The notes below the pieces were generated by a model. The model saw nothing but the letters and a program-made list of their open reading frames with translations. It ran no database searches and was not told the origin of the DNA. 25,040 nucleotides of DNA. It comes from a bacterium (GTDB lineage: Bacteria; Latescibacterota; Latescibacteria; Latescibacterales; Latescibacteraceae). How positions within the stretch are numbered: position 1 is the stretch's first letter; each line of letters opens with the position of its first letter. The position numbers and the translations under genes are program-made. The stretch spans positions 1-25,040 of the forward strand of contig JAJFUH010000146.1 in the NCBI GenBank assembly GCA_021372535.1, read 5' to 3'. This document shows, piece after piece, positions 3,890 through 24,550 of this stretch.

Positions 3890-4339
3890 ATACCGGTAAA
3901 AAATAATCCGTAACATGGCGATTGATACGAAAAAACATGTATGTGCGAATCAGCCGGTATTTATCTGAAAATACATTTTCATCCTTTTTTATAATCATTA
4001 CTGATCAGGGGATTATTCATAAATTTGTTCAACAGTGAATTGAACGCTCATATTTTCGCATCAGACGGATTTTCACAGAATACCGCGGTACGTAAGGCGC
4101 AACACAAGATTAAATATAACATTCATAAACTCTTACGAGTAATAAACGCTATAATAATTCCGGCTTTTACGGCATACTGTTTGAAGAAAAAACAATTTTT
4201 TTTTAAAAAACCATACATTTGACTTGATTATAAAAAAAAGGTTAATTATTTATAGGTGTAATTGTTGCAGAATATTATAAGAATATACTATTTATATTTT
4301 ATACTTTCATATTCTTCTCAAAAAAAAGAAACAGAGAAC

Positions 4340-5287: not shown

Positions 5288-5421
5288 CCGCTGCCGTCCC
5301 GGACAGAGTACGGTAATCGCGACTGTATATGGTTTTATTCCAACGGATTGATTATTGCTTTCAGCCCGGATTTGTATACATTTTACTGCATAATACAACT
5401 CATATGATCGAGGAGTCTTTA

Positions 5422-6864
5422 ATGAACAGAAGAAAGCTGTTGGGATTCATGTTTGCCGGTACCGGATTCATACTGGCGAATGCCGTCATGATTTTCGCCG
5501 CAACCGAAGCCGACCGTAAAATTGAGGTTGAACAGTGGGACAAGCAGCATCTCCGTTATGGCCAGGGAGTGGTTACGGATACTGCGAAGGAGTTTCTCAA
5601 GATACCCGATGGATATCCCGGAGTTATCAATTTCAAGGTGGCAAAAGCGGTTCCCGAAATAGATTTTACGCCGATACGGCATCAGATTCCTTATTTTTTC
5701 CCGGAGGATAACAAGGGATTGTGGTCGCAGTGGGGAGAGGTTACCAAAGGTCCCAACGGCTGTTTTTACATGGCGACCGGCGATCATCGCTGTAAGGACG
5801 GCCATGTGTTTATCACCGAATACAATCCGTCCCTAAAGGAACAGCGGATAGTTGTGGATGTCGGCAAGGTATGCGGATGGAAAAAGGGACAGTATGTGGA
5901 CGGGAAAATCCACGGGCGCATGGATATCCTTCCCGATGGCACGCTCGTTGCCGCCACATGGCTCGGCCGTAATGTGACTGCGGACGATCTCGATCACGGG
6001 TTTGTCAACGGGGGACATCTCCTGACCTATAATATTTACACTGGTATGGCGAAATATCATGGTATCCCCTTTCTCGGTGACAGCTGGCCCTATTACTCGG
6101 TGGACAAACAGACCGGTGTGCTCATGGCAATCGGAAACGATAAGAATTTCATGGCATACAATGTAATCACCGACAGGCTGCTGTACGGCGGAAAACCTCC
6201 TGCGGGCATGATATGGAATTCACGGTCGATGCTCCTCGATGAAAAAACCGGGTTCGTCTACAGCACCGATACGAAAATCGACCATAACTTCAAACCCGAC
6301 AAGGATACATATCCCTTCCTCCGTTTCGACCAGTTCACCAACACATTCACCCGCCTGTCCTGTACGGTACCGGTCAATCCGGAGACCGGCCTGTGTTCCA
6401 ACATCCGGACATATTCCGCGCGCCGCACACCGGAACAGTTTTTCTGGTGTTTCGATTACCAGGGGACACTGTTCAAATTTTACCCCGATGAGGAAAAAAC
6501 GGAACTCGTGGGTGTCAACTGGGATAAAGCCGGGGTTTACGCCACAAGCATGGCTATGAGCCCCCGCTGCCGTTATATCTACTATATCCCCTCCGAAAGC
6601 GGAAGAGCGCACAAATGGGGAACGCCGGTAATCCAGTACGATACCCGGGACGATGTCAAAAAAGTGATCGCATTTCTCGCTCCCTTTTACCATGAGAAAT
6701 ACGGCTACGTCGCGGGAGGAACGTTCGGTATAGAATTGAGCGGGGACGGCTCGCTGCTGGTTATAGAGATGAACGGAACATTCGGTCCGTGGACCGATAA
6801 AACCTCGTATGGCCAGGTGTCCATTTTTGCCGTTCATATTCCCGAATCGGAACGAATCGAATAG
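5422..6864 (+). CDS. Hypothetical exported protein (~480 aa), possibly beta-propeller-like. The N-terminus resembles a Tat/Sec signal (MNRRKLLGFMFAGTGFILANAVMIFAATEA). I recognise no domain.
   Basis: Long ORF. GAGGAG RBS at 5410-5415, 6 nt before ATG 5422. RR-x-LL motif. The track start 5329 lies upstream of the RBS. Confidence 0.7.
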   Translation: MNRRKLLGFMFAGTGFILANAVMIFAATEADRKIEVEQWDKQHLRYGQGVVTDTAKEFLKIPDGYPGVINFKVAKAVPEIDFTPIRHQIPYFFPEDNKGLWSQWGEVTKGPNGCFYMATGDHRCKDGHVFITEYNPSLKEQRIVVDVGKVCGWKKGQYVDGKIHGRMDILPDGTLVAATWLGRNVTADDLDHGFVNGGHLLTYNIYTGMAKYHGIPFLGDSWPYYSVDKQTGVLMAIGNDKNFMAYNVITDRLLYGGKPPAGMIWNSRSMLLDEKTGFVYSTDTKIDHNFKPDKDTYPFLRFDQFTNTFTRLSCTVPVNPETGLCSNIRTYSARRTPEQFFWCFDYQGTLFKFYPDEEKTELVGVNWDKAGVYATSMAMSPRCRYIYYIPSESGRAHKWGTPVIQYDTRDDVKKVIAFLAPFYHEKYGYVAGGTFGIELSGDGSLLVIEMNGTFGPWTDKTSYGQVSIFAVHIPESERIE

Positions 6865-6868
6865 ATGG

Positions 6869-6900
6869 CCGGAATTATCGTATTCCGGTTCCGGATTTAC
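6869..6900 (+). terminator. Probable terminator: CCGGAAT-tatcgt-ATTCCGG hairpin followed by a T-containing tract (TTCCGGATTT).
   Basis: 7-bp perfect stem immediately after stop 6862-6864. The T-tract is imperfect. Confidence 0.5.
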
Positions 6901-6921
6901 ATGGATAGTATGGCGCGCTTG

Positions 6922-7025
6922 TTATTGCTCCGGTGATTAAACAATGACATCGGATGACATCATACCAAACTTGATTCGGCATCTATTTTTATAGTGGAAT
7001 CGATATTTATTCGCCGAAGCAATAA
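6922..7025. repeat. Copy A of a ~105-nt intergenic element with terminal inverted repeats. TTATTGCTCCGG (6922-6933) is complementary to CGCCGAAGCAATAA (7012-7025) at 11/12 positions. The core carries the 10-bp-phased direct repeat ATGACATCGGATGACATC. Short modules of the same family flank it, at 6892-6908 and 7024-7076 (itemised in the repeat-module findings).
   Basis: Direct comparison with copy B at 23046..23150 gives ~80% identity overall and ~86% over the first 66 nt. Confidence 0.7.
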
Positions 7026-7160
7026 CATGGTTTTATTTATCGAACTCATGTAACCCGGATTTATCTGAAAATGCATCGACGGTTTCCTGTGGGGAAGCCC
7101 CGGCCAGGTGTCTGGTGTCCCTGTAACGCCGTCATTCCCGAATCTTTAATCGGGAATTCA

Positions 7161-10947: not shown

Positions 10948-11730
10948 TTATTTAATTTCAAGACTTTTTAAATACTTAAAAATATCTTCTGATTCAAGCT
11001 GACTATAAATTCTATTTGAAATATTATCATCAATGAAGTCCAAATAAAAATAATTTGTATCAGTAAAAGCGTCTTTTATATTTATGATAATTTGTGTTTT
11101 ATAATATATATTTTCTGGTATATCATTTTCTGATTGGACTTCTTTTATTGAATATCTAGCCCAATAATAAGTATCATAAAGTATTCCAATATCGTTTGTA
11201 TACAAATATAAAAAATGCAAGACAAACTCAGAATCTTTAGGAAATTGTATTATTGGATATTTCTCATCGAATATTTTTGTTTGATTATTTTTCAATTCAA
11301 TATTTTGATAAAAGTCAGGGAAAAGTATAGCTGACTTTAATTGTCTATTTCTTAATTTTTTATCTAAAAGAATATTTCTTAACATTGTATAACCGGCGGT
11401 TGAATCAGTCTGAATCACTGCACATAATCTTGCAGAATGATTACCCTCATTCTTAACCTCCAATTTTAATCTTAAAGAATCTATTTCAACAAAAAATTCT
11501 ATTATATGATTATCCGTTGTAATTGTTTTTTCAGGTAATATTTTAGGAATAAAAAACTCAATAAGTGGTTCCTTTTGGATAACTAGGTTTGGCTTGTATT
11601 CCATAGATCTTATTTGGAAATTCATTTTATTTATTTTAGCATTCTGTTTTACATTAGAATAATAACCAAATATTGATATTAATATAGCAATAATAGTAAA
11701 AAACCAATGAATAACTTTTTCTTTTTTCAT
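10948..11730 (-). CDS. Orphan hypothetical protein (~260 aa) with an N-terminal membrane anchor (MKKEKVIHWFFTIIAILISIFGYY) and an Asn/Ile/Lys/Tyr-rich body. It is encoded in a strongly AT-rich island.
   Basis: The ORF is open to 11898, but ATG 11730 has a GAGG RBS 7 nt upstream and begins the hydrophobic anchor. Composition differs sharply from neighbouring genes. No domain recognised. Confidence 0.6.
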   Translation of the reverse strand: MKKEKVIHWFFTIIAILISIFGYYSNVKQNAKINKMNFQIRSMEYKPNLVIQKEPLIEFFIPKILPEKTITTDNHIIEFFVEIDSLRLKLEVKNEGNHSARLCAVIQTDSTAGYTMLRNILLDKKLRNRQLKSAILFPDFYQNIELKNNQTKIFDEKYPIIQFPKDSEFVLHFLYLYTNDIGILYDTYYWARYSIKEVQSENDIPENIYYKTQIIINIKDAFTDTNYFYLDFIDDNISNRIYSQLESEDIFKYLKSLEIK

Positions 11731-12020
11731 TTTCAACCTCTGCATATACAATTTATGTAGATAATTGAAAATAATATTGTTAATAATGTATTTAAATCTC
11801 CAAATCAACCGCTTTGTTTTCTCTAGGTCAAGCACATAGATACCCGCCACATTGATTGAACTGTGATCGCAATACCTCTGCATTTCCCTAATACTCATTC
11901 CTTATTAAAACCCAAACGCGATTAATCTATCCTAATAACCATATATATTATCAATAAGTTATATATGATATGTTAAACTTATTCTCCTCTTAGTCTTCGC
12001 GTGAAATTTTTCCCCAAATG

Positions 12021-15588: not shown

Positions 15589-16917
15589 CTATTTGAACAT
15601 CAATTCGCCCAGAACACCCGGAACGGACTCTCCATACGGAAGAATCTGATACCGGATTCCACTGCCGAACGATAAAACTTTATCATACTCCTGATCGATA
15701 ATGACTTCGCTGAGGGGCGAAATCTCCTGAACGTTTTTATAGCCCTTCTGCTTCCCGTTTTTATCAAGATAGACAACCTGCAGATACCCGCCGTAAAAAA
15801 CACCGAATTTCCCCTTTACCATACCGTCTTCGACATGCAGTTCCTCAGCAACAACGCCATGGGAGACGACCTTCACAACTCCCGAACAGAAGCAGGCGCC
15901 CCAGGTTACATCGAGCGCGGAGGACTCTCCGGGAGCCAGCCGTGTGAGCGGCCCCATGACCTCGAGCTCCATATTGGCCGTATCGGGCGAATATTCGGTC
16001 TGAAAATCACGGTTATTGGCGCGATATGTCCCGGCGCCGTTCGTCCATATCTCAACATTGCTCCCGTTGTCGGGATACTCGATACCTTTTTTGACCGGAA
16101 ACATCATGACAAAGACGGCGTTGTTCTGCTCATCGTGCCATGCTACCCATCCCTCGCGGACTTTCAGGCCGATCTTGCCGACACGCTTGTCATACCGTGC
16201 CCGGAACATCCCTTTTTCCACGCCGAGCCACTGCGGATTGTCCTTGTCGCCAAAAATAACATGCCATCCATCCTTGTCGACCGGCGCATAGACGGTTACG
16301 GGCCTGTCCACGGGGACTGTGGCGAGATGCCAGATGCCCCATTTCACCGGACGCTGGACTACATTTTTCATGGTCATATGGAGGTCGAGCAGGGAACTTG
16401 TATTTTTAAAGGCATAGGTATTCGTGTACTGGAGCCCGGTTCTCCCCTCTCCCGTATCGGCGGGGCTTGTGACCGTTATGGATTTATCGTTCGCCGTGTA
16501 TTCGTACGGTGAACCGTCCAGCACGTTGTCCGGCGGTCCCGGCCACTCGTCTTTTCCGCTCCAGCCCTGGGGCGCGGGCCAGACTTTCGCTCCGCCGGGA
16601 TTGAAGAAGCTCTCGCCGAAGCCGTATCCCTCGGTTTTGTACAGCTCACCCTCGCGTTTGGGATCATGCCAGAGAATCTGGAATCCCCGTAGGTCGTAGC
16701 CCATAATTTTGCCGCCGAGTTCGGGAACGACATCGACCTGAGCAAATGTCGTCCGAAGCGTCGCCGATTTCCAGCCGTGGAATCCTTCCTGAGCGATAAC
16801 GATCTGCTTTCCTCCCGCCGGAGCTTTCTGCTCGCTCTTCTTATCGCCGGAACAGGAATACATGAGCACTACGAGTATAAGAATGGCTAATGACAGTAAT
16901 TGCTTTCTGCTGCGCAT
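15589..16917 (-). CDS. Unknown lipoprotein (~440 aa, signal and lipobox LMYSCSG) encoded as the first gene of the sugar ABC operon. Possibly an aldose-epimerase-fold or DUF4380-like carbohydrate-handling protein, but this is a guess.
   Basis: The ORF begins at 16923 in the track, but the GGTGAGG RBS favours the second ATG (16917, MRSRKQLL…). No firm domain assignment. Confidence 0.65.
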   Translation of the reverse strand: MRSRKQLLSLAILILVVLMYSCSGDKKSEQKAPAGGKQIVIAQEGFHGWKSATLRTTFAQVDVVPELGGKIMGYDLRGFQILWHDPKREGELYKTEGYGFGESFFNPGGAKVWPAPQGWSGKDEWPGPPDNVLDGSPYEYTANDKSITVTSPADTGEGRTGLQYTNTYAFKNTSSLLDLHMTMKNVVQRPVKWGIWHLATVPVDRPVTVYAPVDKDGWHVIFGDKDNPQWLGVEKGMFRARYDKRVGKIGLKVREGWVAWHDEQNNAVFVMMFPVKKGIEYPDNGSNVEIWTNGAGTYRANNRDFQTEYSPDTANMELEVMGPLTRLAPGESSALDVTWGACFCSGVVKVVSHGVVAEELHVEDGMVKGKFGVFYGGYLQVVYLDKNGKQKGYKNVQEISPLSEVIIDQEYDKVLSFGSGIRYQILPYGESVPGVLGELMFK

Positions 16918-17069
16918 AAACATACCTCACCTGTGAAAACAATGAATTATTATGGAAATTTTATTGCTTTTCCGGTGTTTCCGAGGTTTTCAATATAATT
17001 CTATTAGGGGGAGCATTCAAGATAAAATCGTGTCTTCATCAGATCAACTTGTAAAAATCAATAGTAATG

Positions 17070-17104
17070 CGGATTTACACGGATAGAGCGGATTAACGCG
17101 GATT
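17070..17104. promoter_or_regulatory. Array of four CGGAT(T/A) motifs phased 9-10 nt apart (gCGGATTtacaCGGATAgagCGGATTaacgCGGATTcg). It sits ~150-185 nt upstream of the sugar ABC operon start and is a candidate operator or regulator-binding array.
   Basis: Seen in the sequence. The helical phasing suggests protein binding on one DNA face. The first 17 nt also match a motif at 6892-6908. Confidence 0.3.
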
Positions 17105-17620
17105 CGTTTTTAAAAGTCTGAACAGTTGTGTCTGGTCAAAATATTGAGAAACTCTTGTATGAATTAGAACATAATAATTGCCAACTTTAATCATAGAAAC
17201 TCACCCCGCGCATAACACTTTGATAAAACGGATTTTAGCTGGCGCTTCACCTCTCTTGGAAAGAGAGGGGATCGATGGGTTAGTTCTGGTGGGGAATAGG
17301 AGTGACAATCATATTCAAAACAATCCACAAGCAGGTAAAAGCTCTATTTACATATTTTTCAAACTGTTATTACAATTTAACCGGAGAGTTCTGGTATTCT
17401 ATATTATTATCATTTTCGCTTCGAATAATGCGAGCTCGAGTAATAGTCTATATCTGGAGACTACTCATCCAAAAGACTTTATTAAGACACATAAATATGC
17501 ATATCTTCGTGACTAGGTATTAATAAAAGTGTTTTGTGTAATCGACGCCCTGTTCGATAAAAAAAACGAGTTATTATTTGTAGATCATTGAGAAATATTT
17601 TTTGCATTCTGTTCCCTATT

Positions 17621-18118
17621 TTATAATATAAGTTCTACTTCTGAGTTTATATCTTTTGTAATAGAAATTGCATACGTAAAAAAATCATCGTTAAGAGATT
17701 CAGCTCGCGAGAGATTAGCATATTCTATATACTTTAGATTTTCCCATCTCATAAAATCCGATGTGGGTACTGTCATAAAACCATCTGCTTGACTTATTGC
17801 CCATGCGTATGTAGAAGGGTTTTTATTTTGCATAGCATATTGAAAATCGATCTTTATAATTTCATAATATAATTCCTTTCCTTTTATCCATTTTTTGGCA
17901 TTCTTTTTTTCATTTTCGTCTTTATAGTTAGCGTTATTATAAATGACATTAAATTCAATCTGCATGCTTTCAACTATTTTAAAAAGCTTAGAAAATTGAA
18001 TCATTGTTGCATCCGAAAGGATTTCTTTGTTTTCATTCATCTCATTTTTCTGTACTTGAGGCTGACACCCATACATTAGAGAAAACACCAACAATAATGA
18101 AAACATTAATCTTTTCAT
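17621..18118 (-). CDS. Orphan small lipoprotein (165 aa; MKRLMFSLLLVFSLMYGC lipobox) in AT-rich island 2.
   Basis: Clean ORF with signal peptide and lipobox cysteine. Composition is very AT-rich relative to the core genes. No domain recognised. Confidence 0.6.
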   Translation of the reverse strand: MKRLMFSLLLVFSLMYGCQPQVQKNEMNENKEILSDATMIQFSKLFKIVESMQIEFNVIYNNANYKDENEKKNAKKWIKGKELYYEIIKIDFQYAMQNKNPSTYAWAISQADGFMTVPTSDFMRWENLKYIEYANLSRAESLNDDFFTYAISITKDINSEVELIL

Positions 18119-18582
18119 TACATTTCTCCTTTTTGGGGTGTAACAAAATAATATACTCTTTAATAATTTAATATGTACAGATGTTTCGTAAAAAACAAGA
18201 AAAAAGTGTCGATTTTTCGTATACTTTTTGTTTTTCCACTGAGTGTGTACTTACTCTTTTTATTCTCTGATCTCTTTTAACATCACGAGCAAGTTTTCAG
18301 GTGCTTTTGAAGCATCTTCAGGAGTATAACAAGCCAGTCTTACAGTTTTCTAACAAGTCTTTATAAGTAGTATGTCTTATGTGTGATTTCTGTCAGTCTA
18401 CAGAACTCACGCATAGTGTTATATAAGCTTATACCAAGTTGTGGTCATACAGGTAACTATAGCAACTCATTGATTATTAATGCTAAAACAGGTTCAGCAT
18501 GACGGCGCTCATGTCACCCTGAATTTATTTCAGGGTCTATTGCATACGTTATTACTTCATTGAACGCATTTTGATATGAGAT

Positions 18583-18614
18583 AAAAAAAAGGCACCCCGC
18601 AACAGGATGCCTTT
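18583..18614 (-). terminator. Rho-independent terminator for the CRTAC1-like gene. On the minus strand it reads AGGCAUCC-uguugc-GGGGUGCCU followed by U9.
   Basis: ~8-bp stem (one G·U pair) plus a 9-nt T-tract, ~25 nt after stop 18639. Confidence 0.75.
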
Positions 18615-18638
18615 TATCAACCGCTGTATTTCCACTGT

Positions 18639-20210
18639 TTATTTCGGTTCGACAATCTTTATCGTCTGTCCAGCCGCAACGTTTTTCTCAATGGCTTCTT
18701 TACCGGAGGGGAACTTGACGACGACATCGTATTTCTTTGTCGCGTCGACACCGAAATGCTGCTGGAGCGGGTTGCCGGGGAATGTTCCGCTGCCCGCTAT
18801 CACCTCACGGAATCCACGGAGCGCCTTCGAATCCTTCGCCCTTCCGGCATCGTAGACCCACACCTTGCTCATGACCGCGGAACGGTTCGAGGTTGTCCCT
18901 TCGAGGTTGACTTTCAGGAAGTTCTTGTTATTCGTTTTGTTCTCGAAAAGAAACCACTTTCCGGGATTGCTTGCGCTCTGCCTGCGCCAGTTGCCGCCGA
19001 CAAGGTCGAGGTCGCCGTCGCCGTCGAGGTCGCCGAGCGCCAGTCCATGCCCGTAAAACCACGATCCGCCGGTTTTTTCATGGGATTCGGTGAATTTCCC
19101 CGTGCCGTCGTTGATGAGAACGAGCGCATCGAACCAGCTGTTGGTGACTATGATGTCGAGGTCGCCGTCATTGTCGATATCGCCCATAGTGCAGCCGCGG
19201 GAATTGGTCTCGATGTCGACACCCGCCTGATGCGAAACATCGGTGAATGTGCCGTTCCCGTTGTTGCGGAACAGCGAGTTGGCGCCCCATTTCTTGTCGG
19301 GGTACACCGGGCCGGCGCTGTTGGCGAGAAACAGGTCCTGGTCGCCGTCGTTGTCGACATCGCCCCAGAAACAGGTGATGTTGGTGCCCTGCGCGGCAAG
19401 CCCGAGCTCTTTTGTGACATCGGTGAATGTGCCGTCTCCGTTGTTGCGGTAGAGGACGCGGGTGAGCGGCTCATTGGGATTGTCGTTGATGTTCCCGACA
19501 TACAGATCGGGATCGCCGTCGTTGTCGTAATCGCAGAAGGAGCAGCAGTAGCCGTTGCCGCGGTCGGCGACACCGGCCTTCACACCGATATCGGTGAACG
19601 TGCCGTCTCCGTTGTTCACATAGAGGGAGTTGGCGCAGTCCATGCCGCTGCGGTACCCGCCCTCGGAAACATAGATATCGAGCAGACCGTCGCCGTTGAC
19701 ATCGGCGGTCGTCACACCGCACGAATAATTCGGTCCTCCCATGAGACCGGCCTTTTTAGCGCATTCAACGAATCCCTCATCATAGCCGAGATAGAACGAG
19801 TTGGGCTGGTCTGTCTCGCCGCGTATCTGCGTCAGGGCTTCGAGATTGTTCGCCACAAACAGGTCGAGATAGCCGTTGTTATCGAAATCGGCCCAGACAA
19901 TGCCGTGGGTGTCGTGAATATCGTCGACACGCATGACCCGGGACATGTCCTTGAATTTGAGGTTTCCCTCGTTCTGGAACAGCTTGTTATAGGAATAGAC
20001 CACGCTCACGTAGATGTCAAGGTCGCCGTCTCTGTCCCAGTCACCCATTGCAATGCATTTTCCCCAGCCCTGGTGATCGAACCCCGACCCATCGGTCACA
20101 TCACGGAATATCGTGCCGTTGAGAAACAGATTCCTCGGCTCGTACTGCGCATATACGGCGCATGCAGCCACTACCGTAAGAATCAGCGCGAAAATAAGCA
20201 CACGTTTCAT
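18639..20210 (-). CDS. CRTAC1-family secreted protein with multiple FG-GAP/VCBS-type repeats (F(T)DVT…G….GDxDNDGDxDL.V.N) and a C-terminal ASPIC/UnbV domain.
   Basis: Signal peptide MKRVLIFALILTVVAACAVYA. Repeated DxDNDGDxD Ca-binding loops. C-terminal UnbV-like segment. AAGGAGTG RBS. Confidence 0.85.
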   Translation of the reverse strand: MKRVLIFALILTVVAACAVYAQYEPRNLFLNGTIFRDVTDGSGFDHQGWGKCIAMGDWDRDGDLDIYVSVVYSYNKLFQNEGNLKFKDMSRVMRVDDIHDTHGIVWADFDNNGYLDLFVANNLEALTQIRGETDQPNSFYLGYDEGFVECAKKAGLMGGPNYSCGVTTADVNGDGLLDIYVSEGGYRSGMDCANSLYVNNGDGTFTDIGVKAGVADRGNGYCCSFCDYDNDGDPDLYVGNINDNPNEPLTRVLYRNNGDGTFTDVTKELGLAAQGTNITCFWGDVDNDGDQDLFLANSAGPVYPDKKWGANSLFRNNGNGTFTDVSHQAGVDIETNSRGCTMGDIDNDGDLDIIVTNSWFDALVLINDGTGKFTESHEKTGGSWFYGHGLALGDLDGDGDLDLVGGNWRRQSASNPGKWFLFENKTNNKNFLKVNLEGTTSNRSAVMSKVWVYDAGRAKDSKALRGFREVIAGSGTFPGNPLQQHFGVDATKKYDVVVKFPSGKEAIEKNVAAGQTIKIVEPK

Positions 20211-20542: not shown

Positions 20543-21877
20543 TTATCGACCGATCACCTTGAACACTTTATCGACCAGTCCCTTCGCTTCTTCCGTAGTC
20601 GGAGCCTCGGCTATGATCCTTACCACCGGTTCGGTGTTGGACCCGCGAACATGGACCCAGGAAACGGGGAATATGATCTTGATACCATCCCTGGCATCCA
20701 TTTTCTCTCCGGCAAAAGCGGCTTTGAGCGGCTCGATCCATGTTCCTTTTGCGGAAATGGCAGCTTTTTCCTTGATCATCGAATAGCGGGGGAACTCATC
20801 GGCCAGAGCGCTGACCGTTTTGTCCCGCTCAGCCATGATCTGAAGGATGAGCGCCATGCCGAGAACCGCATCACGCCCGTAATGGAGAGAAGGAAAAATC
20901 ACTCCGCCGTTTCCCTCGCCTCCTATTGCGGCGCTGTATTCGCGCATGGTTTCCACTACATTGATCTCACCGACCGGCGAGCGATAGACAACCGAACCGT
21001 GCCGGGCGGCAGCATCGTCGATCAGACGTGATGTCGAAAGGTTGCAGGCAGCCGGTTTACCCGTCTTATCCATGATGTAATCGGCGGCAAGCGCCAGTGT
21101 GTATTCCTCACCGAGTGCCTCGCCCCGTTCGTTGACGATTGACAGGCGGTCCACATCGGGATCGACAGCGAATCCGACATCAGCGTCGCATTCCCTGACA
21201 AAGGAGCAGAGATCGCCGATATTTTCCGCAACCGGCTCGGCGCCATGGGGAAACTGACCGGTGGGCTCGGCATAGAGAGCATGAACCGTGCATCCGAGGC
21301 GATCGAGCAGCTCGCCACAGATCGATCCACCCGCGCCGTGAACCGTATCGACACATACCGTAAAACCGCGCGAGGCTATCAGATCACGGTCAATCACATC
21401 GAGATCGAGAACAGCCTCGATATGGTAATCGTCCGCAAAACACCATGACGATAACGATACGGTGGAAGATGCAGCTTCGCCGGGCGATGTCGATTCATAT
21501 TTTTTTACCAGTTCGGCACCCTGTGAAGCGTTGAGAAAAATTCCATCCGGCCCGAGAAATTTGAGGCCGTTCCATTCGCCGGGATTATGACTTGCGGTGA
21601 TGATGATTCCTCCCGAGGCGCGACAGGCGACCACAGCCATTTCGGTCGTCGGCGTCGATGCGATCCCAAGATCGATTATATCGGAACCGGCGCAGGTCAG
21701 TCCTTCGATAACCGCCTGAGTGATAATGGGGCCGCTCACACGGGAATCTCTGCCGACGATAACCTTTTTACCGTAGAGCTGCCCGAAAACACATGCAAAC
21801 CGCTGTGCTATCTCCTCTGTCAAACCATCCCCGTAAACTCCCCGGACACCGGATATTCCTATCATCAAACGAGGCAC
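20543..21877 (-). CDS. Alpha-D-phosphohexomutase family enzyme (phosphoglucomutase, phosphomannomutase or phosphoglucosamine mutase).
   Basis: Active-site phosphoserine motif TASHNPGEWNGLKF, four-domain length (~444 aa), GTG start with GGGAGGA RBS. Confidence 0.85.
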   Translation of the reverse strand: MPRLMIGISGVRGVYGDGLTEEIAQRFACVFGQLYGKKVIVGRDSRVSGPIITQAVIEGLTCAGSDIIDLGIASTPTTEMAVVACRASGGIIITASHNPGEWNGLKFLGPDGIFLNASQGAELVKKYESTSPGEAASSTVSLSSWCFADDYHIEAVLDLDVIDRDLIASRGFTVCVDTVHGAGGSICGELLDRLGCTVHALYAEPTGQFPHGAEPVAENIGDLCSFVRECDADVGFAVDPDVDRLSIVNERGEALGEEYTLALAADYIMDKTGKPAACNLSTSRLIDDAAARHGSVVYRSPVGEINVVETMREYSAAIGGEGNGGVIFPSLHYGRDAVLGMALILQIMAERDKTVSALADEFPRYSMIKEKAAISAKGTWIEPLKAAFAGEKMDARDGIKIIFPVSWVHVRGSNTEPVVRIIAEAPTTEEAKGLVDKVFKVIGR

Positions 21878-23045: not shown

Positions 23046-23150
23046 TTAATGCTTCGGTTATTTAACAGTGACATCGGATGACGTTATACCGAACTTGTTT
23101 CGGCATCTATTCCTGATATCGGTATCATAATTTATTCGCCGGAGCAATAA
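23046..23150. repeat. Copy B of the inverted-repeat-bounded ~105-nt intergenic element. TTAATGCTTCGG pairs with CGCCGGAGCAATAA, and the core carries GTGACATCGGATGACGTT. An imperfect hairpin with a 12-bp stem (GGGCGGTGAAAA-agaatc-TTTTCACACGCCC) follows at ~23165-23195.
   Basis: Aligned by eye to copy A at 6922..7025. Confidence 0.7.
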
Positions 23151-24101: not shown

Positions 24102-24550
24102 AGTATAGCCTCCGCTGTTTAATTGTGTATGGTACAGTCACAGATTCCGTTTCTTTTATTACTACAGAAAACCTTAGCAATTTATTCATCTGCTTCCAAA
24201 ATGGCTCATAAACCGGTGAAAGTCAATTAACGTTTTTCCGGGGATATGTAACGGACATCACTGCTTTCCCGTCAGGTTCATGGTATTATTGCTCTGGCGA
24301 ACATGCAGTCATAGTGAAGGGTCTCATGATATATCATGTCCGTGTCCATTTTCTCAACGGTGCCGTAAACATATCCACCGGAGCGGTATGATCGATTAAT
24401 CCCGATGAAACACCATATCTTTTCATAAAAACAGGAACAAACTTATACAATGAAACGTACAATGTAGGTAAAAAGTGATAGCTCTATGTATCCTGAAATA
24501 CTATATTGATATAAAAGTATAAAAACGGTAAATATATTATTGGATGAATT

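Follow-up and report, generated by a model that had tools for sequence, protein, structure and literature searches.

Two 17-nt sequences that lie about 10 kb apart in a Latescibacterial contig differ at a single position, which raises the question of whether they are two copies of one element or a coincidence. The contig (JAJFUH010000146.1 of GenBank assembly GCA_021372535.1; locus tag LLG96) was analyzed over its whole length of 25,040 nt, hereafter called the window; its closest relatives are “Candidatus Latescibacteria”, at ~70% amino acid identity. As originally predicted from the DNA, CGGATTTACATGGATAG is found at positions 6892-6908 (site 1) and CGGATTTACACGGATAG at positions 17070-17086 (site 2), both on the + strand, and both are noncoding, site 1 being located past a stop codon and site 2 upstream of a DUF4380 gene. 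The sole difference is a C-to-T transition from the site 2 to the site 1 17-mer. We found that the two sites call for different answers. Judged from its sequence, site 2 is quite probably a single arm without a gene that belongs to a family of inverted-arm elements. This family is spread over many phyla, and its full-length members contain a gene for a GxxExxY protein. Site 1 is not a demonstrable member of it.

The match itself carries less weight than was first claimed. The original prediction held a 16/17 match between two intergenic sites to be very unlikely by chance, but in first-order Markov simulations of the window, in which any pair in either orientation was counted, 2.1 ± 1.5 such pairs are expected per 25 kb, and the real window contains ~8 16/17 pairs without explanation by obvious repeats. 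No further match to the 17-mer occurs in the window, even at three or fewer mismatches, and a reading of the sequence shows the alikeness of the two sites to be confined to the 17-mer. The observation is thus real and its significance was overstated. The pair is notable because one partner, site 2, is a genuine structured element: by arithmetic, a chance 16/17 pair would touch its 38-nt element in ~0.3% of windows, and in ~0.04% if both sites of the pair must be intergenic.

Site 2 and a family of box arrays

Site 2 reads TGCGGAT-tta-CACGGAT-ag-AGCGGAT-taa-CGCGGAT, that is, four 7-nt boxes whose starts are 10, 9, and 10 nt apart. It is the only chain of at least three GGATs at 8-11-nt spacing in the window; four-unit chains of this kind are expected 0.003 times per simulated window, and one is seen. 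A family profile built from 225 arm 20-mers lacking the 17-mer gave its two highest scores in the window, 19.1 and 17.2 bits, to the two halves of site 2, which displays the three or more C-R-C-N-G-A-T boxes, 9-10 nt apart on one strand, that define the family. Read on the minus strand, it gives RIRVNPLYPCKSA, a tail of the same kind as the ends of GxxExxY proteins. The site precedes the start of the minus-strand DUF4380 gene by 147 nt. This gene opens a sugar ATP-binding cassette (ABC) transporter operon, and the site is hence located in what the sequence indicates to be the promoter region of this operon, where it is probably an inert fossil.

The extent of the family became apparent when 596 Gb of sequence, with each species represented by one genome, were scanned with CGGATTTACAYGGATAG as the query, which returned at least 130 matches; the following figures on phyla and variants concern the matches listed. 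These come from Acidobacteriota, Bacteroidota, Ignavibacteria, Cloacimonadota, Verrucomicrobiota, Chloroflexota, Desulfobacterota, Nitrospirota, Planctomycetota, Lentisphaerae, WOR-3, and Gammaproteobacteria, with several copies per genome in Luteimonas. The exact 17-mer of site 2 was found in more than 10 phyla, nearly always within arrays of 3-4 boxes. Matches with the C of site 2 number 117, and those with the T of site 1 number 13. A second CGGAT stands exactly 9-10 nt upstream in 72 of the 117 C-variants (0.04 expected per 24 nt), and a family feature of any kind is present in 91 of them versus 2 of the 13 T-variants; likewise, 2/13 T-variants have a CGGAT within 24 nt upstream. At least 87 of the C-variants are intergenic, though a crude open reading frame (ORF) caller assigns 85% of these loci to coding sequence, while 11 of the 13 T-variants are coding.

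The boxes of the family follow the consensus (A/C)C(A/G)C(G>A)GAT, mostly with 3-4 boxes per chain, and are separated by 2-3 variable bases, giving a period of 9-10 nt, or roughly one helical turn. A typical element consists of TGCCACGGAT-ga-ACGCGGAT-ga-CGCGGAT-tt-ACACGGAT-AGAGC, an interior, and an inverted arm ending in ATCCGTGGCA, and the outer ends of the inverted arms are typically (TT)GCCACGGAT...ATCCGTGGC(AA). Converging arm pairs outnumber diverging ones 54:6. They enclose a GxxExxY gene or, far more often, a short interior that is unique to each copy (18-149 nt in the arm-pair sample and up to ~600 nt with the gene). Between the arms of one element, spacers are 56% identical versus 34% expected, and none of 1,000 shuffles reached 50%. 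The intergenic sites lie between convergent genes in 19 cases, tandem genes in 36, and divergent genes in 5, which indicates that the elements favor gene 3' ends.

Solo arms are common in the family, and the birth of one by deletion can be seen directly at an orthologous Luteimonas locus, where L068 has both arms and L011 (7616-7732) has kept the right arm and lost the left arm together with part of the interior. Genome-specific subfamilies also exist, for example in Desulfobacteraceae (L043/L080/L082/L113). At one orthologous slot, two related genomes carry arms of different makeup (CACAGAG-type at L009:5636-5847 and CACTGAT/CACGGAT-type in L042), which suggests turnover or replacement at a preferred site. 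The 79 complete elements show no target-site duplication: their flanks match in 2 cases at k = 2 and in 0-1 cases at k = 3-9, fewer than in the offset control. The Rfam search gave no match in the window and only tRNAs in 17 loci with complete elements. Viral contigs yielded three matches only, unstructured and chance-like, so that the family does not seem to be phage-borne. No description of the arms was found in Rfam or the searchable literature, and the family appears to be undescribed in the sources searched. The earlier idea that the 17-mers belong to a modular family of short repeats can be retained in spirit for site 2, with its 7-nt boxes, its 9-10-nt period, and its likeness to the remnant of one inverted end of a larger element, and finds no support at site 1.

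A GxxExxY gene beside the arms

To find protein families recurring beside the arms, all ORFs in 120 loci were clustered. Across phyla, a single family recurs there, namely, the GxxExxY proteins of ~125-127 aa (TIGR04256, E = 1e-39; PF13366 PDDEXK_3, E = 1e-38). A transposase was considered as the partner and rejected, as no transposase family recurs beside the arms and no target-site duplication is present. In L006/L077 and L054 the arms enclose the GxxExxY gene exactly, with start and stop codons that abut or overlap the arms. The start codon of L006/L077 lies inside the left arm, which thereby encodes the N terminus MYTDD, and the right arm comes after the stop codon; in L006, the cassette separates the ATPase gene of an ABC transporter from the permease gene.

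The association also appears in an independent sample of 80 metagenome GxxExxY loci picked by protein similarity alone. Strict-flavor arms were found to the left of the gene in 27 of 75 loci, to the right in 27 of 75, and on both sides in 21 of 75, compared with 1-1.5% of control windows. Flanks with a 9/10-nt period of any flavor accompany 51/74 GxxExxY genes versus 12/409 control windows, and left and right flanks are reverse complements of each other in 38/74 loci versus 0/74 after shuffling. Given the frequency of periodic flanks, the arms appear to form the termini of a small cassette built around a nuclease gene, of which many derivatives lack the gene. Sister flavors of the box include CGCAGAT, CACAGAT, CACGAAT, CACAGAA, CACGAAA, CACTGAG, and CAGGAT/GGGAT, the last being the type found 3' of a Latescibacterial orthologue in L001 (see below). 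Proteins flanked by the same flavor are more alike than others (63% versus 56% identity, p = 5e-12), and the orientation of the arms relative to the gene is biased (43 sense to 6 antisense), which suggests that arms and gene are functionally coupled.

Traces of the arms can be read in the proteins themselves. Database GxxExxY proteins (P0121-P0240, alignment A5) bear N-terminal tails (MNTDKHGF or MNADKRGL) and C-terminal tails (DNPRK-IRENPCSSVA or IRVNPC), all of which are arm-encoded and represent in-frame translations of boxes. A AATCCGCG box also runs through the codons of the near-invariant C-terminal DNPRK, and gene end and arm consequently overlap. The family is very large, with 7,903 of 8,000 scored candidates at E ≤ 1e-10. 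An AlphaFold2 model of the GxxExxY protein (mean predicted local distance difference test score, 83.7) has weak, generic fold matches in the PDB, all of them to PD-(D/E)XK nucleases (lambda-exonuclease-like, restriction-endonuclease-like, splicing endonuclease, and Hjc resolvase). Neither PADLOC nor PHROGs contains the protein, and a PDB sequence search gave no match. In a published classification, PF13366 is entered with the function “Unknown” and the phylogeny “multiple transfers, mixed clades” (PMC3424549). At L158, where the gene spans positions 1501-1869, a right arm and, immediately after it, the truncated C terminus of a second GxxExxY protein (...LLLNFGVKPEV) follow ~110 nt downstream, an arrangement that hints at tandem or nested cassettes.

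For the window, the outcome is modest, namely, one 36-nt putative fossil arm in a promoter region and one doubtful 17-mer. The larger interest lies in a box array that is kept across many phyla and flanks a huge protein family whose function is listed as unknown. If the link between arms and gene holds, it would provide a testable function for PF13366, a REPIN-like system (inverted pairs of repetitive extragenic palindromic [REP] sequences) built on a different enzyme, and a rule for annotation by which arm-encoded GxxExxY tails are trimmed and spurious ORFs of the IRVNP type are discarded.

Alternative readings of the two sites

The explanation by chance fares best at site 1. The two-box look-alike found there (Table 1) breaks the invariant C-R-C core in both boxes and falls short of the three boxes of an array. 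Its profile score is 0.8 bits, a value reached ~5.9 times per simulated window, under a profile that was trained on strict-core chains and so penalizes any core deviation heavily. A chance 16/17 match and a badly decayed two-box fragment appear to us about equally probable at this site, and it is accordingly an even question whether the window holds any two-site feature. In favor of chance are the number of 16/17 pairs expected per window, the broken cores, the end of the alikeness with site 2 at the very edges of the 17-mer, and the predominantly coding position of the T-variants listed, few of which stand in a family context. Moreover, element-rich loci contain 15 natural relatives that differ from the 17-mer by one mismatch, and each of these has kept the family context, unlike site 1. 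Against chance stand the rarity with which a random pair would involve the 38-nt element and the smallness of the difference, a single transition. The position of site 1 also speaks against it, since the 17-mer begins 28 nt past the stop codon (6862-6864) of a 511-aa ORF (5329-6864), which is typical of the family.

Latescibacterial relatives provide evidence on both sides. Behind the same gene family, periodic GGAT elements are present: L001:11480-11625 (identical in L002) is a complete palindromic sister-flavor element, TCTGAACCGGGATTTATGGGATGACAGGATTATCGGGATTC ... GAATCCCGGTTCAGA, 3' of the orthologue of the 511-aa gene. The other orthologues (L003, L207, L208, and L209) have no element of this type conserved at their 3' side, which points to an independent insertion in L001 and fits a chance match at site 1. 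Phylogenetic footprinting at site 1 gave no support, as synteny has been lost and neither L001 nor L003 contains the 17-mer at three or fewer mismatches.

For the family as a whole, the question is whether the boxes act as DNA or as RNA. Mismatches between the arms of an element comprise 237 transversions versus 163 transitions, changes compatible with wobble pairing are not biased toward the sense strand (88 versus 75), and the 7-nt cores agree between arms while the spacers often differ. This pattern favors protein-binding DNA boxes over a selected RNA helix. The boxes may accordingly be read as repeated binding sites on duplex DNA, for which the nuclease of the cassette itself, or else an oligomeric host factor, would be the likeliest binder. 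Such a binder would pair both arms and cut or resolve the DNA at their outer ends. Gene-less copies would then be maintained or moved in trans, following the logic of REPIN and REP-associated tyrosine transposases (RAYT) or of miniature inverted-repeat transposable elements (MITE) and insertion sequences (IS), with another enzyme and without target-site duplication; deletion of the partner arm would leave a solo arm such as site 2. We put forward binding and cleavage of this kind as a tentative mechanism, somewhat short of an even chance. With slightly greater reserve, it is tempting to regard arms and GxxExxY gene together as an undescribed class of selfish or domesticated elements, in which a minimal nuclease would read the helically phased 7-nt boxes of both arms, move or maintain the cassette in the absence of target-site duplication, and leave behind thousands of gene-less and solo arms, site 2 among them, in environmental bacteria. 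If so, the very common spurious ORF tails of the IRVNP/NTDKHG type would be explained.

An RNA-level role seems unlikely, yet it has several points in its favor. Transcribed arms would form a long imperfect hairpin, of which site 2 would be half a stem, and might terminate or insulate transcription, occlude a start codon, or be cut by RNase III as in the intervening sequences of 23S rRNA. The predominance of converging arms, the preference for gene 3' ends, the covariation of the arms in their spacers, the start codon within the left arm with the stop codon abutting the right one, and the cassette inside an ABC transporter operon would all suit such a role. On the other hand, the mismatches are rich in transversions and lack a G:U excess on the sense strand, the cores are conserved as sequence across phyla to a greater extent than pairing requires, and solo arms are both common and persistent. 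Site 2 alone does not fold significantly on either strand compared with shuffles (z = -1.96, and +0.67 for the minus strand).

Several observations weigh against reading the family as a nuclease-driven element and site 2 as one of its arms. The link between arms and gene could reflect coinheritance rather than recognition, and the 3'-end bias and the start codon inside the arm fit an RNA-level role as well. Elements are kept at orthologous loci across genera with turnover by indels (L021 versus L070), a persistence that fits long-lived residents as well as mobile DNA. Among the orthologous loci compared, there was no clean empty site, only the partial deletion of L011/L068 and the indels of L021/L070; with target-site duplications lacking too, mobility is something that we infer. 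As for site 2, two of its four boxes deviate from the consensus, at core position 1 only, the other two being perfect. It has no partner arm, as no inverted box pair was found anywhere in the window. Neither tblastn nor a permissive six-frame hmmsearch of the window detected a GxxExxY gene or remnant (best E ~0.4 to 2), so that site 2 could only be a gene-less derivative. Its membership is thus read from sequence and periodicity alone.

Could the two 17-mers instead be operators of one host factor? Direct repeats with a period of ~10 nt are typical of winged-helix response-regulator sites. The original prediction had allowed for a binding site shared by a single protein, and a factor of the OmpR type, for example, could coregulate the flavodoxin region and the DUF4380/sugar ABC transporter operon. 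The spacing of the boxes by about one helical turn would agree with this, as would the location of both sites in intergenic DNA on the + strand and the position of site 2 at 147 nt before the first gene of a sugar-uptake operon. We nevertheless consider this explanation very improbable, because an identical sequence accompanies unrelated genes in more than 10 phyla, usually in inverted arm pairs at gene 3' ends. Site 1, moreover, follows a gene and is separated by ~500 nt from the next gene start, no similar site is conserved near orthologues of the gene beside it, and a promoter scan found nothing above the shuffle level.

The last possibility concerns element A, a MITE-like repeat of which one copy begins only 11 nt from the end of site 1 (Table 1). 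Two full copies with 80-86% identity are present (6920-7027 and 23046-23150), as well as a lone inverted end (24282-24301); the 22-nt terminal inverted repeats are TGTTATTGCTCCGG.../...CCGAAGCAATAACA, and in an alignment the homology stops at the TTATTGC...GCAATAA ends, with unrelated flanks. That the 17-mers are units of the REP type or of bacterial interspersed mosaic elements (BIME), or ends or targets of element A as a MITE, as the original prediction had in part suggested, is the least probable of all the explanations and hardly worth entertaining, since the 17-mer lies outside copy 1 of element A and is missing within three mismatches from copy 2, its flanks, and the lone end; neither site is palindromic, folds better than shuffles, or contains a GTAG motif (sequence read); the boxes are direct rather than inverted repeats; and the family has copy-unique interiors, no target-site duplication, and GxxExxY rather than a Y1 transposase (RAYT) among the proteins recurring beside its arms.

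The likeness of the family to known systems is nonetheless considerable. Like the REP/BIME and REPIN-RAYT sequences of E. coli and Pseudomonas, the arms are short, abundant, intergenic, and concentrated at gene 3' ends, and as in a REPIN, an inverted pair that can form a long imperfect hairpin is the functional unit. Both systems comprise many gene-less copies and a few that flank a small nuclease- or transposase-like gene, and both are inherited vertically at orthologous loci. A REP unit, however, is a palindrome with a GTAG-type head, whereas an arm is nonpalindromic and consists of 3-4 direct 7-nt boxes repeated every 9-10 nt; the enzyme of the former is a Y1 HUH transposase, and the gene associated with the arms encodes a ~125-aa PD-(D/E)XK protein; and REP sequences are species specific, whereas the boxes hardly differ among more than 10 phyla. 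With MITE and IS, the family shares terminal inverted repeats, the coexistence of gene-carrying and internally deleted gene-less forms, and genome-specific subfamilies. It differs from MITE in the lack of target-site duplication and of a DDE or other known transposase, in the copy-unique interiors, and in having arms of repeated boxes in place of a single terminal inverted repeat. The family is thus similar to REPIN/RAYT and MITE/IS in logic and fails their defining tests.

Three further systems bear comparison. The ends of Mu, the TnsB sites of Tn7, and the iterons of plasmid Rep proteins also have several short boxes per end, phased by the helical turn, and the logic of an end-pairing nucleoprotein complex. 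Those sites are 19-22 bp long, element specific, and bound by large DDE transposases or Rep initiators, in contrast to boxes of 7 nt whose candidate binder would be a minimal nuclease. The intervening sequences of 23S rRNA (Leptospira and Coxiella type) have an inverted-flank stem with a small ORF in the loop, and their insertion leaves the transcribed region functional. Unlike them, the box elements lie outside rRNA and have another cargo family and arm mismatches that do not look constrained at the RNA level. Genes of the homing-endonuclease type resemble the cassette as small stand-alone nuclease genes beside or between housekeeping genes in distant lineages, with a mixed phylogeny (PMC3424549). 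The cassettes differ from them in having no intron or intein host and no evidence of a defined homing site, and inverted arms of repeated boxes are not known from homing endonuclease genes.

Other features of the window

Table 1. Sites 1 and 2 and the features adjoining site 1 in the window
Feature	Position	Strand	Description
Site 2, probable solo arm, four boxes	17068-17103	+	Boxes TGCGGAT 17068-17074, CACGGAT 17078-17084, AGCGGAT 17087-17093, CGCGGAT 17097-17103; contains 17-mer 17070-17086; from periodic chain and profile score
Site 1, two-box look-alike	6890-6908	+	TCCGGAT 6890-6896, CATGGAT 6900-6906; contains 17-mer 6892-6908
Short hairpin CCGGAAT-tatcgt-ATTCCGG	6869-6888	+	Directly 3' of the stop codon of the 511-aa ORF, left of site 1; from sequence reading
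Element A copy 1, MITE-like, ~105-106 nt	6920-7027	.	22-nt terminal inverted repeats (I13); direct repeats D5/D13 to 23046-23150

The short hairpin to the left of site 1 is outside the family of CRCNGAT-box repeats. The region 6860-6925 folds no better than shuffles (z = -0.42), and a terminator scan called no terminator at the hairpin. On the other side, the spacer that holds site 1 also contains one copy of a near-identical intergenic pair (3959-3976 and 7059-7076; ATTTATCTGAAAATRCAT, 17/18). The similarity of this ATTTATCTGAAAAT pair does not extend further, and it could be due to chance or be a small regulatory motif. In the spacer upstream of an HD-domain gene, a weak two-box look-alike (4064-4080; GACGGAT-ttt-CACAGAA) has the third-best profile score of the window, 6.4 bits, and may be one more decayed fragment.

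Positions 15939-15959 and 21724-21744, within the unrelated minus-strand genes for DUF4380 and phosphoglucomutase, form an inverted match of 21 nt, 18 nt of it perfect; by arithmetic, chance would supply ~0.009 perfect 18-mers per window. Two AT-rich stretches, 10948-11898 and 16924-18640, have a GC content of 22-37% versus ~50% for the contig. The first corresponds to a gene for a 316-aa membrane protein with a weak match to cytochrome b561, the second is an island with site 2 and an orphan lipoprotein-like ORF (17621-18118), and both look like foreign DNA. At the GC-rich left end of the contig, a 229-nt tandem duplication with 81% identity (328-556 and 562-790) probably encodes a domain repeat in a protein that has no Pfam match.

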